This document shows, one piece after another, positions 30,948 through 35,673 of a stretch of 64,000 nucleotides of DNA. The notes beneath the pieces were generated by a model. That model saw only the letters and a program-made list of their open reading frames with translations. It was not told the DNA's origin and did no database searches. A program made the position numbers and the translations under genes. Numbering within the stretch: position 1 is the stretch's first letter; each line of letters begins with the position of its first letter. Origin of the DNA: Sulfolobales archaeon (lineage in GTDB: Archaea; Thermoproteota; Thermoprotei_A; Sulfolobales; NBVN01); assembly GCA_038832865.1 (NCBI GenBank), contig JAWBJE010000004.1, forward strand, positions 14,217 to 78,216, read 5' to 3'.

Positions 30948-32339
30948 TTATACTGGTTTCACGTACCCCCACTTCTCTAGGGCTTTCCTTAGCTCTACGT
31001 GGTCTTCGGCGTACTGGTCTAGAGGTATTCCCTTCGAAGCCGCTTCGATGGCTTGCCTGACAGCTGCTGCACCAGCTCTAGGTCCCTCGGGGTGACCTAC
31101 CACACCACCGCCTACCTGTATCACTATGTCTAAACCCATGTGTCTTATCACCTCTGGTAGGGTTCCTGGGTGAAGACCTCCGGAGGCTACTGGAATAGCT
31201 GGCTTTATGTGATAGAAGGGCTGAGGTAGGTGAGTGAGATCGTCAGCGGCCGGCTTAAAGTATCTGTCTCTGAGTACAGAGCAGTTCAGTATTACGTCAG
31301 CTGTTTTAGCTTCGAGCTTACCTACTTCAGGTGTACCCACGTGTAGCTGGTCTACACCTACTACCCTGAATAGTTTGGCTAGAGTAAACATGGAGATCCC
31401 GTGGTCAGGGTTTCTGGTCATAGCTGCGTGCATTGCTCTATGAGCGTGAATCGCTAGTCCGTACTCCTCAGCTAGGTCCCGAACGTAAGTCAGCGACGAC
31501 CAGCCCGCTATAACTACGTCAACCATCACGTAGGGGTTTCCGTAGTCCGCGACTAACTTCATTCTTCTAGCCATCTCTCTAACGTCGGCCGTTACGTTGG
31601 CGAACCAAACCTTCCTCTCACCCGTCTCTTTCTCAGCTTTATCTATAGCCTTCATAACGCTCTTCGCTCTGGCCTCAAAAGTGCAGAACTTAGGGCTCGC
31701 CAGGTTTTCATCGTCTTTGACGTAGTCTAGACCGCCCACTAGTATTTCGTAAGCTAGCTTCTCTACTTCCTCCGGTGAGTAGCCAACTTTCGGCTTGGGT
31801 ACGGTTCCAACTACTGGTCTATCGAACACTTTAAGAATCTCTCTCACACCGTTCAGCCCCTTAAGCGGCCCCTTGAAGAACTCGAGGAACTTCTTAGGCA
31901 AGTAGATGTCCTCTATCCTCAACCACTTAACCCTCCTCATACCGAATATGTTTCCAGCCACCGAAGCTAGAAACGCCGGGATGTTTCCCTCCTCGAATAG
32001 CTCCACGGGGTATGCTACTCTCACTAAAAAGCTGCTACCTAAGTTAAGCATTTCGTACGCTCTACCCATAAGCCTTAATAGCCTAGACTCATCGTACCAG
32101 GCATAGAGGGTCGTCCAAGTTCCGACACTACTTTCAGCAGCAACTCCACCGGCAGCATCCTCGATAGTAAAGCCGGGGGCTGGAACAATCTTAAAGTTGA
32201 CGATCACGAACTCTTCCGGGTCCGGTCTAAAGCTTTTGTCTACGAATAGGTGGTACGGCTCAAACTCTTTCTGAGTCACATTTATCTCCGATACCGGGTC
32301 TGCGCCACCTATATAAGGTTTCGAGGAACTATTACGCAT
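30948..32339 (-). CDS. rbcL: ribulose-1,5-bisphosphate carboxylase/oxygenase, form III large subunit
   Basis: Collinear with archaeal form III RbcL: AAESSVGTWTT, GNIFGM, VPKPKVGYSP, YVKDDENL (carbamylated Lys), HAHRAMHAA, ASGGLHPG, QVGGGVVGHP. The likely true start is the GTG at 32279, which gives MTQKEFEPY. Confidence 0.95.
   Translation of the reverse strand: MRNSSSKPYIGGADPVSEINVTQKEFEPYHLFVDKSFRPDPEEFVIVNFKIVPAPGFTIEDAAGGVAAESSVGTWTTLYAWYDESRLLRLMGRAYEMLNLGSSFLVRVAYPVELFEEGNIPAFLASVAGNIFGMRRVKWLRIEDIYLPKKFLEFFKGPLKGLNGVREILKVFDRPVVGTVPKPKVGYSPEEVEKLAYEILVGGLDYVKDDENLASPKFCTFEARAKSVMKAIDKAEKETGERKVWFANVTADVREMARRMKLVADYGNPYVMVDVVIAGWSSLTYVRDLAEEYGLAIHAHRAMHAAMTRNPDHGISMFTLAKLFRVVGVDQLHVGTPEVGKLEAKTADVILNCSVLRDRYFKPAADDLTHLPQPFYHIKPAIPVASGGLHPGTLPEVIRHMGLDIVIQVGGGVVGHPEGPRAGAAAVRQAIEAASKGIPLDQYAEDHVELRKALEKWGYVKPV
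32309..32318. promoter_or_regulatory. shared palindromic TATA element (CTATATAAGG) between divergent rbcL and e2b2 genes
   Basis: About 30 nt from the rbcL GTG at 32279 on the minus strand and about 41 nt from the TTG at 32358 on the plus strand. It is the only A/T-rich element in the 78-bp spacer. Confidence 0.5.
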
Positions 32340-32357: not shown

Positions 32358-33353
32358 TTGGATTGCTCGGAGGCCTTAAGAGCTTACGAGAGAACGTTGG
32401 TTGAAGCCAGAGAGTTCAGGATACTGGGCTCTACGGAAGTAGCAGTAGAAGTGATGAGAGCTCTAGCGAGAGTGGTCGGTTCCTGCCACAAGCAACCGAT
32501 AAACATGGAGGGGCTAGTGCGCTCGGCCATAAGTGCGAGACCTACTTCTCAAGCGGTGCGCAATCTATTAATGCTCTTCTTCGAGAAACTGCTAGAAAAG
32601 GCTTCTACACCAAGCGAGATAGCTGCGGAAGTAGGTGAGGTGGTTAGAGAAGTCGAGAACTACGTAGCTAGAGCGAGGGACACCGTCTCCGAGCTCGCAT
32701 CTAGGAGGATAGAGGACGGGGACACCGTAATGACGCACTCCTATAGTACTACAGTACTTAAGGTATTAACTAAGGCTTTAGAGAGAGGTCTCAATATCTC
32801 CGCCTACGTAACGGAGTCTAGACCCGGTGGAGAGGGTAAGCTAACAGCGTCTCACCTAGGGAGGATGGGGGTCAAGACCTTCCTCGTAGTCGACTCCGCC
32901 GCAAGGTACGTTATGAAGGGTGTAGACAAAGTGATTGTGAGCGCTGAAGCGATAGCGGCCAACGGGGCCGTGGTAAACAAGGTCGGTACCTCTGCTCTAG
33001 CACTAGCCGCCAAAGAAGCGAGAGTTAGAGTATACGTAGTATCGGGACTCTACAAGTTCGGTACCGAGACCCTCTTTGGGGAACTCGTAACTATAGAGGA
33101 GATAGAGAAACCCGACTTCATAATCCCTAGCGAGAGAATTGGTGAGCTGGCACCGTTTATAGGTAGAAACCTCCACGTTAGAACGCCGCTGTATGACGTG
33201 ACACCACCTGAGTACATTGATGCTATAGTTACCGAGAGAGGGCTTATAGCCCCTCAAGCGGCTATATACCTCGCTCGTGAACTCGTCGGGTGGCCTAAAG
33301 CCCGCAGGTCCCTTGATGTAGTCTTGGCAGAGGTGGCCTCACTATGGAGGTAG
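32358..33353 (+). CDS. eIF-2B alpha/beta/delta-family protein, divergent e2b2 paralog lacking the catalytic Cys and Asp
   Basis: Family motifs TESRPGGEG and ANGAVVNKVGT are present. However, it has THSYS (Ser128) and SAEAI (Glu196) where the downstream paralog has THCHS and GADAV. Confidence 0.8.
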   Translation: MDCSEALRAYERTLVEAREFRILGSTEVAVEVMRALARVVGSCHKQPINMEGLVRSAISARPTSQAVRNLLMLFFEKLLEKASTPSEIAAEVGEVVREVENYVARARDTVSELASRRIEDGDTVMTHSYSTTVLKVLTKALERGLNISAYVTESRPGGEGKLTASHLGRMGVKTFLVVDSAARYVMKGVDKVIVSAEAIAANGAVVNKVGTSALALAAKEARVRVYVVSGLYKFGTETLFGELVTIEEIEKPDFIIPSERIGELAPFIGRNLHVRTPLYDVTPPEYIDAIVTERGLIAPQAAIYLARELVGWPKARRSLDVVLAEVASLWR

Positions 33354-34336
33354 CCGGTTGTAGAGTACCCGATGAAGTAGTTAGCATCAGGGAGGGTATT
33401 AGGAGCATGAAGATCCGTGGAGCTGGCAATATAGCTAGAAACGGGGCTCTGGCCCTGGCTATAGCCGCAGAAAAGTTCTGCGGTAAAGACCTAGAGGAGT
33501 TCTCAAGATACATGAGGGCTGTCGCCGACTTTATCCGGTCCGCTAGACCAACCGCCGTCTCCCTACCTAACTCCATATCCTACGTTATGAGCAGACTCGA
33601 GAAGAGCAACCCTCGGTCTGTAGAGGAAGCTAGAGAAGCAGTTATTAAAGCAGCAAAAGACTTTATCTCCTACTCGGAAAAAGCCGTAAAAGTTATTGCT
33701 CAGCTGGGTGCGAAAAGAATCGAGAAAGGAGACACCATAATGACCCACTGCCACAGTACTGCGTCAGTGGCTGTAATCCTTGAAGCCCAGAGACAGGGAA
33801 AAATAGCGAGAGTATTCGTTAAAGAGACGAGACCAGCACTGCAGGGGCTGATAACAGCTAGAGAGCTAGCTAGGGAGGGAGTTGAGGTCGTTCTAATACC
33901 GGACTCAGCTGTAAGGTACTACATGAAGAAAGTAGATAAAGTCGTCGTCGGAGCCGATGCTGTAGCGGCCAACGGAGCCGTCGTCAACAAGATTGGGACC
34001 TCTCTCGTTGCTCTAGCAGCTAAGGAGGCTAGATCCAGAGTTTATGTAGCTAGCGAGTCCTACAAGTTTAGTCCGTATACCATCGTCGGGGAGCTAGTCC
34101 CGATAGAGGTGCGAGACCCTACTGAAATAGTAGACCGAGAGTGGTTAACCGAAAACCGAAACGTCCAAGTACTTAACCCGGTATTCGATGTTACACCACC
34201 GGAGTACATTGACGCTATCATTACCGAAGTCGGTGTTATCCCACCTCAAGCAGCCGTGCTAATACTAATGGAGGAGTACGGGATAACGCCATTAACCGTC
34301 GAACATCTACCGGCCATCCATCTCGACGCCGATTAA
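33344..34336 (+). CDS. ribose-1,5-bisphosphate isomerase (e2b2 / aIF-2B-II family)
   Basis: MKIRGAGNIA, THCHS (Cys136), VKETRP, VVGADAVAANGAVVNKIGT (Asp205). The Cys-Asp spacing of 69 equals the Cys133/Asp202 spacing I recall for the Thermococcus kodakarensis enzyme. Overlaps the upstream paralog by 10 nt. Confidence 0.85.
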   Translation: MEVAGCRVPDEVVSIREGIRSMKIRGAGNIARNGALALAIAAEKFCGKDLEEFSRYMRAVADFIRSARPTAVSLPNSISYVMSRLEKSNPRSVEEAREAVIKAAKDFISYSEKAVKVIAQLGAKRIEKGDTIMTHCHSTASVAVILEAQRQGKIARVFVKETRPALQGLITARELAREGVEVVLIPDSAVRYYMKKVDKVVVGADAVAANGAVVNKIGTSLVALAAKEARSRVYVASESYKFSPYTIVGELVPIEVRDPTEIVDREWLTENRNVQVLNPVFDVTPPEYIDAIITEVGVIPPQAAVLILMEEYGITPLTVEHLPAIHLDAD

Positions 34337-34764
34337 AGGTAAACAAAGCAGAACTACCCCCCGAACTCTTTAAGAGTTAACCTACGAGGACCTACTTGGC
34401 CTAATTCGGTAGCATGAGCTTCAAGCCTCGCTATTGCTTCGGGTTTCAGCCTTTACGCTGTTGGTGTTGATGGAACTCCTATAGGTATCCCAGTCACTTC
34501 GTACGCGGGAGTGACTCGATGAGGGGCTAAGAGTCTATGGGTTCTCCCAAGCCACTCGAGACGCGGGAATGCCTTGTCTAACAAGGTCCGAGCGGGATAC
34601 TGGGGAACGGAGAGAGGCAACGGAGTCGATATAAACCCATATAAAAGTCGAACCCCTAGAGTGCTACGCAAGGCATAACTAGCTTTGAAACCGACTGTAG
34701 CTCGTTGAGCGCAAACCATGGGAAGAGCACATATATGTTGAGGGTGTGCCAGTACTATTGAGAG

Positions 34765-35673
34765 GTGATAGCAGTGATAGTGTTGGGGGGTTCGGAGGGA
34801 GCACACGTAGGCTTCGAGCTGTCGAAGCACCTAAGAACGAGCTACTACGATGTTGAAGTAAAGGAGTTCCCCGACGGCGAAATATACGTTAGGATCCCAG
34901 TTGATGTGAACGGTCTAGACGTCATTTACGTAAACTCTCTAGCTAGACGCCCGAACGACCTCCTCGTGGAGGCCGTTCTAACTTTGGAGACTATCGCCGA
35001 CCTAGGTGCTAGAACCATCTACTCCGTACTTACGTATATTCCGTACGCAAGGCAGGACTCTAGGTTTAACCCGGGCGAGGCCGTCAGTGCTTTAGTAATA
35101 GCTAAGCTCCTGAAGTCGTTGCGGGTAGACCGCATATACACTTTCGACCTCCACTTACATAGGTTTAGAGACCCGAAGCGCGTTTTTGGTGATAACTTCG
35201 TAAACCTGACAGCAGTCAGAGACTTGGTAAAATACGTTAGCACGTACCACAAGCTCGGCGACTGCGTTATCGTAGGTCCTGACGAAGAGTCTGAGCAGTG
35301 GGCTAAAATAGCATCAGAGGAGCTCGGAGGCGCCCCGTATACAGTCATGGAGAAAAAGAGGGTCAGTGCGTCAGAGGTCGTAATAGAGCCCCGAGATCCC
35401 GACGTAGTTAGAGGGAGGACGGCCGTTGTAGTAGACGACATTATAAGTACGGGTGGTACTGTGGTTGAGACGGTTAGAGTGCTGAGAAGCTTGGGGGTAA
35501 GAGACGTTTACGTTGCTGTAACGCACGCTATATTGGCCGGTAGAGCGTATAGCAGACTTGTCCAACTCGAGCTAAGAGACCTCGTGGCATCCGATACGGT
35601 ATTAAGCCCGATTAGCAGAGTGCGCACGGCTCCGATATTAGCTAGGTCCATCCTGACCTCGAATGGCCCGTAA
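34765..35673 (+). CDS. prs: ribose-phosphate pyrophosphokinase (PRPP synthetase)
   Basis: FPDGEIYVRI, YARQDSRF and the PRPP-binding loop VVVDDIISTGGT. Confidence 0.9.
   Translation: MIAVIVLGGSEGAHVGFELSKHLRTSYYDVEVKEFPDGEIYVRIPVDVNGLDVIYVNSLARRPNDLLVEAVLTLETIADLGARTIYSVLTYIPYARQDSRFNPGEAVSALVIAKLLKSLRVDRIYTFDLHLHRFRDPKRVFGDNFVNLTAVRDLVKYVSTYHKLGDCVIVGPDEESEQWAKIASEELGGAPYTVMEKKRVSASEVVIEPRDPDVVRGRTAVVVDDIISTGGTVVETVRVLRSLGVRDVYVAVTHAILAGRAYSRLVQLELRDLVASDTVLSPISRVRTAPILARSILTSNGP

Follow-up and report, generated by a model that had tools for sequence, protein, structure and literature searches.

The DNA analysed here, a 64-kb window from a Sulfolobales archaeon (contig JAWBJE010000004.1, positions 14,217 to 78,216; all coordinates below are those of the window), carries two tandem PF01008 genes that lie head to tail on the + strand, beside a divergent gene for type III RuBisCO (rbcL) and upstream of the ribose-phosphate diphosphokinase gene prs (Table 1). 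The two proteins, which we call paralog I (upstream) and paralog II (downstream), are 45% identical over 256 aa (BLASTP, E 4e-63). Their genes overlap by 10 nt, as the first-pass annotation of this DNA had described, and we found no gene conversion tract between them here, the best shared stretch being 97 nt at 71%. Paralog II is a canonical ribose-1,5-bisphosphate (R15P) isomerase. Paralog I is a member of a conserved, Cys-less sister family of this enzyme and not a decaying copy, and the comparative evidence tips the balance, if not heavily, towards a heteromeric R15P isomerase in which I is a non-catalytic subunit, probably with a regulatory role. The names carried by the nearest homologues put the organism among hot-spring archaea of the Sulfolobales/Desulfurococcales. 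Reference residues are those of the enzymes of Pyrococcus horikoshii (Ph) and Thermococcus kodakarensis (Tk).

Every R15P-isomerase residue was present in paralog II. Its N-terminal IRGAG motif, THCHS (Cys136) and VVGADAV (Asp205) were read as originally annotated, its R-G-C-Q-D signature is intact, it scored 389.9 bits against NCBIfam TIGR00511 (cut-off 314.1), and it matched the PDB entries 3a11 and 5yfj at E ~1e-99. Paralog I gave a significant full-length match to PF01008 (220.5 bits, residues 24-299 on profile positions 4-280 of 280) and scored 247.6 bits against TIGR00511, the R15P isomerase equivalog model, which is under the same cut-off. Membership of the MtnA family or of the PH0440-type aIF2B family was ruled out by the scores: the MtnA models TIGR00512 and NF004326 gave 113.4 bits (cut-off 279) and 134.7 bits (cut-off 271), with MtnA scores about half those of II, and the aIF2B model NF006210 gave 104.9 bits (cut-off 339). 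The top PDB match of I was 5yfs, the inactive C135S mutant of the Ph enzyme; R15P isomerase scored ~200 bits, followed by eIF2B delta and alpha (101-105 bits), and the P. horikoshii aIF2B 1vb5 scored 88.9 bits. An AlphaFold2 (AF2) model of I (pLDDT 88.3, pTM 0.87) showed a helix bundle at the N-terminus together with a Rossmann-like C-terminal domain, and Foldseek aligned it at TM 0.83-0.87 to 5yfs, 5yft, 5yfj and 3vm6; closed-form, ligand-bound R15P isomerase was the best structural match, and eIF2B alpha and delta came next. The fold-level motifs of I, TESRPGGEG and ANGAVVNKVGT, are present as previously stated.

It has been previously reported that the Ph enzyme holds the 1-phosphate of its substrate through Arg22, Arg65, Gln166 and Lys215 and the 5-phosphate through Ser137 and Lys240, while Asp204, Asn214 and Lys215 contact the sugar, and that its C135S mutant has no activity and retains R15P binding (PMC5789824). 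HMMER alignment to the Ph structure set Ser128 of I, in the motif THSYS, on the catalytic Cys (Ph Cys135, Tk Cys133), which bears out the earlier reading, and Glu197, in IVSAEAI, on the catalytic Asp (Ph Asp204, Tk Asp202); this Glu had been numbered 196 and is in fact residue 197. The IRGAG motif is indeed missing from I, which has ILGST instead. To place these differences in a family context we counted residues in 121 sequences per family, that is, the 120 closest homologues plus the window's own protein, in Ph numbering. At Cys135 the I family has Ser in 113, Thr in 5 and Gly in 3 sequences, and the II family has Cys in all 121. Arg22, invariant in the II family (121), is replaced in the I family by Leu, Tyr, Pro, Phe, Gln or Ile, among others; Gly25, a backbone contact of the 5-phosphate, is Gly in 120 II-type sequences and Thr in 120 of 121 I-type sequences; and Gln166 is Gln in 121 and Glu in 117 of 121, respectively. 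At Asp204 the II family is again invariant (Asp 121), and the I family is split between Glu (77) and Asp (44 of 121).

The catalytic Cys was thus absent from 120 of 120 closest homologues of I, and R-G-C-Q-D was kept in 121/121 II-type sequences. Since these substitutions are found again in each of the 120 nearest homologues, they are not due to chance or error, and since the Cys, Arg22 and Gln166 positions have changed family-wide, the base and half of the 1-phosphate site have been lost from the I family. The first-pass annotation had held that I lost both catalytic residues. This stands for the Cys, which is gone in all family members, but overstates the second loss, because Asp to Glu is conservative and 44 of the 121 sequences keep Asp. 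We found no substitute Cys elsewhere in I: among the 121 sequences none is enriched near the pocket, and Cys is frequent only at residues 3 and 43, both at the distal end of the N-terminal bundle of helices (no other column exceeds 6/121). These two residues (32364-32366 and 32484-32486 in the window) co-vary, both being Cys in 52 sequences, neither in 59 and one only in 10, a pattern suggestive of a structural disulfide in this distal part of the I-family bundle. Cys at both neighbouring columns of II (Cys6 and Cys46) was seen in only 2/121 II-type sequences, one of them the window's own.

The remainder of the ligand-binding apparatus is kept in I. Two of the four 1-phosphate ligands are replaced (Arg22 by Leu23, Gln166 by Glu159), and the equivalents of Arg65 and Lys215 are retained. 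Its 5-phosphate and sugar ligands Ser130, Lys233 and Asn207 correspond to Ph Ser137, Lys240 and Asn214, positions at which the I family has Ser in 121/121, Lys in 118/121 and Asn in 102/121; Arg65, Ser137, Lys215 and Lys240 are as invariant in the I family as in the II family. New residues, Thr26 and Glu159, have become fixed in the pocket. Furthermore, the dimer pair Glu160/Arg162 and the hexamer contacts Glu287/Tyr288 are as invariant as in II, and I keeps the AMP activator-site residues Arg124, Arg190, Lys194, Asn209, Arg229 and Asp290. Conservation of the AMP-site and hexamer-contact residues in the I family equals or exceeds that in the paired II genes.

To see how the two genes are arranged elsewhere, we scanned one genome per GTDB species with the I-family alignment as query and kept the best 80 loci, which together with two exact look-up loci and the window made 83 sources. 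In 59 of the 62 loci with a Cys-less gene, this gene lay directly upstream of, and on the same strand as, an R-G-C-Q-D gene, a nearly invariant linkage. The pairs were found in Desulfurococcaceae, Zestosphaera, Thermofilaceae, Thermoproteales, Conexivisphaera, one Nitrososphaerales metagenome-assembled genome and three Bathyarchaeia, and cultured carriers include Thermofilum pendens (CP000505.1), Infirmifilum lucidum (CP062310.1) and Thermogladius calderae (CP003531.1). A single catalytic gene was present in 21 of the 83 sources (Thermococcus, Methanosarcinaceae, Hadesarchaea, Asgard, Methanomethylicia and most Bathyarchaeia). The paired genes overlap in 38/58 cases and are separated by at most 10 nt in 53/58, figures for which the II start nearest the I stop was taken where there were several candidates, a choice that biases gaps towards small values. 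A 4-nt overlap of the ATGA type is commonest (18 pairs), and the window's clade has 10 nt. Many other pairs also carry a GGAGGTG-type motif 5' of the II start. In the source records automatic annotation names I-family members "ribose 1,5-bisphosphate isomerase", "initiation factor 2B" or "hypothetical protein".

RuBisCO lay within 8 kb of 7 pairs and prs within the same distance of 12, so the constant element is the I-II pair and not the RuBisCO neighbourhood. In Thermofilaceae and Thermoproteales (loci L002, L090, L032, L033, L048 and L053) prs is directly upstream of the Cys-less gene; it overlaps that gene in T. pendens (L002, 5124-8564, CP000505.1), and the order prs, I, II, phosphoribosyltransferase is found in both T. 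pendens and I. lucidum (L090, 4052-7630). In these lineages the pair is linked by its context to phosphoribosyl pyrophosphate (PRPP) metabolism and not to RuBisCO.

A tree of 141 genes placed the 61 Cys-less genes on one side of a branch (SH-aLRT 99) and united the 56 paired catalytic genes of Thermoproteota in a clade (SH-aLRT 98) that includes no unpaired member. The same sub-clades recur, in similar internal order, in the Cys-less and the catalytic halves of the tree, a pattern indicating that I and II genes diverged together. Comparison of the window with an 89% relative gave dN/dS values of 0.13 for I and 0.094 for II (dS ~0.45), and across 1653 genome pairs mean identity was 0.43 for I and 0.60 for II, with I lower in 99.9% of them. 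Paralog I therefore evolves faster than II yet is under purifying selection, and the reading frame was intact in 62/62 Cys-less genes from several Thermoproteota orders and some Bathyarchaeia.

A further pattern concerns the activator site. In the Ph hexamer AMP is lodged between three protomers, contacted by Arg124, Arg229, Trp231 and Asp290 of chain A, Asn209 of chain B and Arg190 and Lys194 of chain D (PMC5789824). The catalytic II protein has lost at least one chain-A residue in 21/59 pairs; in T. pendens the chain-A positions of II read Val, Gly, Asp and Thr, and the I. lucidum II protein has Leu at Arg124, Gly at Arg229 and Thr at Asp290. The Cys-less partner keeps the chain-A Arg, Arg and Asp in 56/59 pairs, and the chain B and chain D residues are kept in both proteins. 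Such complementary loss would be expected if I and II shared one hexamer with I carrying the AMP site, and it is hard to explain by separate complexes; we take it as a hint of a division of labour.

These observations suggest the following model. Paralog I would be unable to isomerise R15P to ribulose-1,5-bisphosphate (RuBP), and its inactivity is probable by analogy with the published C135S mutant. Because in heat-loving archaea an I-type gene stands almost always directly upstream of the gene for the active enzyme, usually overlapping it, I is probably a non-catalytic subunit of that enzyme. Both proteins would be made from one transcript by coupled translation, and I would join II in a hetero-oligomer with the trimer-of-dimers architecture of the known homohexamer. 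In this assembly II would provide catalysis, and I would provide structure and ligand sensing through two sites, namely the inter-subunit AMP activator site and the remodelled pocket, which could accommodate a ribose-5-phosphate moiety and would not bind the 1-phosphate. The first-pass annotation had left a choice between a pseudo-enzyme or regulatory partner and a different activity. The comparative evidence favours the former, given the universal Cys loss in a clade of at least 61 genes, the near-constant position upstream of a catalytic gene, the purifying selection and the retained interface and AMP residues; the hetero-oligomer and the regulatory role themselves are inferred from gene arrangement and residue patterns.

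Several observations weigh against this model, beside the bias in the gap sizes mentioned above. No partner adjoins the Cys-less gene in three cases (L039, L045 and L025, the last on a 2.4-kb contig). In the window itself neither I nor II has lost any part of the AMP site, and the case for a division of labour is therefore built on other lineages. Sequencing runs containing this sequence were hot-spring DNA metagenomes only; no RNA run was among them, and a look for RNA or proteome data gave nothing. Haloferax pull-downs did not support a complex among the three PF01008 proteins of that organism, which belong to different subfamilies (PMC8576121). Finally, the Thr26, Ser128 and Glu159 pocket is strongly conserved, which also fits a new ligand or new chemistry. 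A rival reading makes I an independent enzyme of the pathway that acts in a new way on a related ribose-5-phosphate compound (for example PRPP, ribose-1-phosphate or ADP-ribose-derived sugars), using Thr26, Ser128, Glu159 and Glu/Asp197 and sharing an operon with II only as a consecutive step. We regard this as unlikely, although the replaced residues are themselves conserved (Thr 120/121, Glu159 117/121, Ser128 113/121), linkage to prs and phosphoribosyltransferase genes is recurrent, and other archaea have NUDIX hydrolases to which a related Cys-less e2b2 domain is fused (HVO_1934, PMC8576121). The base position tolerates Ser, Thr, Gly and Ala, which argues against a chemical role there; the Asp204 position alternates between Asp and Glu; and the kept AMP-site and hexamer-contact residues, together with the complementary loss in II, would be left unexplained. 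We also know of no PF01008 enzyme that works without the Cys.

Less probable still is that I acts alone, as an aIF2B-like protein that binds a ligand or has a part in translation (by binding aIF2-alpha, for example), and does not assemble with II. It is true that eIF2B alpha, beta and delta and archaeal aIF2B are non-catalytic members of the same fold (PMC4787765), that eIF2B delta and alpha are the second-best PDB matches of I, and that its MtnA scores are low; however, I is far closer to R15P isomerase than to 1vb5, its gene links are to isomerase, RuBisCO and prs with no translation genes among them, and a separate degenerate clade of TACK archaea, described below, would suit an aIF2B role better. 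That I is still an active isomerase of R15P, or of methylthioribose-1-phosphate (MTR-1-P), working through Ser128 and Glu197 seems very improbable to us: the retained fold, most of the substrate-binding residues and the chemical nearness of Glu to Asp would allow it, but the Ph C135S enzyme is inactive (PMC5789824), family members have Gly, Ala or Thr at the Cys position, two of four 1-phosphate ligands are gone, and the TIGR00511 and MtnA scores are all under their cut-offs. The faster evolution of I could be taken as the mark of a decaying duplicate, a pseudogene in the making. We reject this reading, to which we give scarcely any credence, on the grounds of the dN/dS of 0.13, conservation across the phylum, the intact frames of all 62 Cys-less genes and the confident AF2 model.

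Table 1. Positions of the genes, signals and altered codons of the e2b2 pair and its neighbours in the 64-kb window.
Feature	Position	Strand	Details and basis
Paralog I, Cys-less e2b2-like protein, putative non-catalytic subunit	32358-33353	+	TTG start, 331 aa
Paralog II, canonical ribose-1,5-bisphosphate isomerase	33344-34336	+	ATG start, 330 aa
I Leu23-Gly24-Ser25-Thr26, replacing the Arg-Gly-Ala-Gly phosphate-binding loop	32424-32435	+	Family alignment; roles from PMC5789824
I Ser128 (TCC), at the catalytic Cys position	32739-32741	+	HMMER alignment to Ph structure
I Glu159 (GAG), at the position of the 1-phosphate ligand Gln166	32832-32834	+	Family alignment
I Glu197 (GAA), at the catalytic Asp position	32946-32948	+	HMMER alignment to Ph structure
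AGAGGTG, Shine-Dalgarno-like, within the 3' end of I, 8 nt upstream of the II ATG	33329-33335	+	Read in sequence
10-nt overlap of I and II, ATGGAGGTAG, from II start codon to I stop codon	33344-33353	+	Read in sequence
TATATAA in the short stretch between rbcL and I, candidate bidirectional promoter box for both	32310-32316	.	Read in sequence
rbcL, large subunit of type III RuBisCO, divergent from the e2b2 pair	30948-32339	-	NCBIfam TIGR03326, 621 bits (cut-off 497)
prs, ribose-phosphate diphosphokinase, 428 nt 3' of II	34765-35673	+	Pfam; NCBIfam TIGR01251, 234 bits

The product of rbcL also matched the Pfam families RuBisCO_large and RuBisCO_large_N. Its true start is probably the GTG at 32279, judging from the position of the TATA element: the long reading frame, from the ATG at 32339, would run over that box, whereas a start at 32279 leaves a 78-nt divergent intergenic region between rbcL and I with one TATA element. 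The N-terminus read from this GTG (VTQKEFEPYHLFVDK...) has the length of that of the T. kodakarensis enzyme. The gap between II and prs (34337-34764) contains no credible reading frame and measures ~235 nt in the close relatives L003 and L005. Among the unpaired Cys-less genes, that of L039 (4159-6001, Geoarchaeota) overlaps the end of a spermidine synthase gene; spermidine synthase yields methylthioadenosine, the entry point of the MtnA pathway. In L045 (7959-10978) the genes that come after the unpaired one encode a metallo-beta-lactamase-fold protein and a PfkB-family sugar kinase.

A wider-family search, which returned 105 clusters (50% identity) at E up to 1e-30, revealed two further Cys-less archaeal groups besides the I family. 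One, which we call the S-S-E-D clade, includes proteins of ~440-450 aa with a C-terminal Cys-less e2b2 domain (P0378, P0271, P0303, P0315 and P0330). Its members include Helarchaeota NVM03456.1 (P0378) and Methanobacteriota RLG71332.1 (P0271), and one is named in its source as a NUDIX-domain protein; a NUDIX-e2b2 fusion architecture is known from H. volcanii HVO_1934 (PMC8576121). Like I, these NUDIX-eIF2B-domain fusions have Ser for Cys and Glu for Gln166, but they form a separate clade next to the Gln22-type catalytic group, are fused to NUDIX and showed no isomerase pairing among those seen. The other is a degenerate e2b2-like clade (L083-L088; P0292, P0402 and P0406) from Nezhaarchaeales, Aigarchaeota and Nitrososphaeria, in which Cys is replaced by Glu, Ala, Gly or Asp and Asp by Ile, Arg, Val or Ala. 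No isomerase partner lies nearby; a GNAT acetyltransferase gene follows at all the loci examined, and most of them also have a small CDC48_N-domain gene downstream. In addition, an intermediate form was seen in the P0261 cluster (14 members, JGI metagenomes) and in L077 and L080 (Bathyarchaeota), which keep the Cys and have Glu at both the Gln166 and Asp204 positions; this form groups with the upstream partners of the Bathyarchaeia pairs.

Set beside the characterised R15P isomerases of Tk (TK0185; 3a11 and 3vm6) and Ph (PH0208; 5yfj), paralog I shares their fold, length, 5-phosphate and sugar ligands, AMP-site, dimer and hexamer residues and type III RuBisCO pathway neighbourhood. It differs in having no catalytic Cys, Glu for Asp and replacements of Arg22 and Gln166, and in scoring below the TIGR00511 cut-off. 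It is almost always encoded beside a canonical copy, whereas the Tk and Ph enzymes are homohexamers from a single gene. Our full-text literature searches returned no description of a Cys-less partner of R15P isomerase; most subscription papers were outside their scope (for example Aono 2012/2015 and Nakamura 2012), so this absence is not proof. The archaeal aIF2B PH0440 (1vb5) is likewise a non-catalytic archaeal PF01008 protein. It is distant from I, as the bit scores given above indicate, is 276 aa long and is not known to be paired with an isomerase gene, and it lacks helix alpha12 (PMC4787765).

The regulatory core of eIF2B is an alpha2(beta-delta)2 hexamer, a homologue of the hexamer of R15P isomerase, and has been proposed to derive from such an enzyme (PMC4787765). 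Like the I family, its subunits are PF01008 paralogs that lack the catalytic Cys and keep their ligand pockets, and they show that the fold can form hetero-hexamers, also with a purely regulatory function (PMC4787765). The eIF2B subcomplex has no isomerase-active subunit and works in translation; in the I-II pair, by contrast, II is a fully equipped enzyme of pentose-bisphosphate metabolism. All 12 eIF2B delta sequences examined have Glu at the Gln166 position, as in the I family, and a quick tree nested these 12 sequences among the archaeal Cys-less clades (SH-aLRT 99). However, a constrained search that excluded this nesting gave a tree better by 49 log-likelihood units (p-AU 0.88), and we therefore make no claim of a specific link between I and eIF2B delta. 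It is a long shot that eIF2B beta/delta-type subunits descend from, or are sister to, non-catalytic subunits of TACK archaea, with the I family as a living example of that step. On this speculative scenario the gene for an isomerase hexamer would have been duplicated, one copy remaining catalytic and the other becoming purely ligand-sensing within a hetero-hexamer.

The R15P isomerase step feeds archaeal type III RuBisCO, and the only enzymes characterised for it are homohexamers of Thermococcales. Should the Thermoproteota enzyme be heteromeric, with a dedicated non-catalytic subunit, then automatic methods give the upstream gene a wrong name or none, reconstructions of the pathway with "two e2b2 copies" need correction, and AMP control of nucleotide-ribose catabolism may be delegated to a separate subunit. 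The cultured carriers of the pair, T. pendens, I. lucidum and T. calderae, are available sources of both proteins. A heteromeric enzyme would also provide a prokaryotic precedent for the catalytic-to-regulatory transition postulated for eIF2B. Taken together, these results have a moderate bearing on the pentose-bisphosphate metabolism of archaea and on how the eIF2B regulatory subunits arose.

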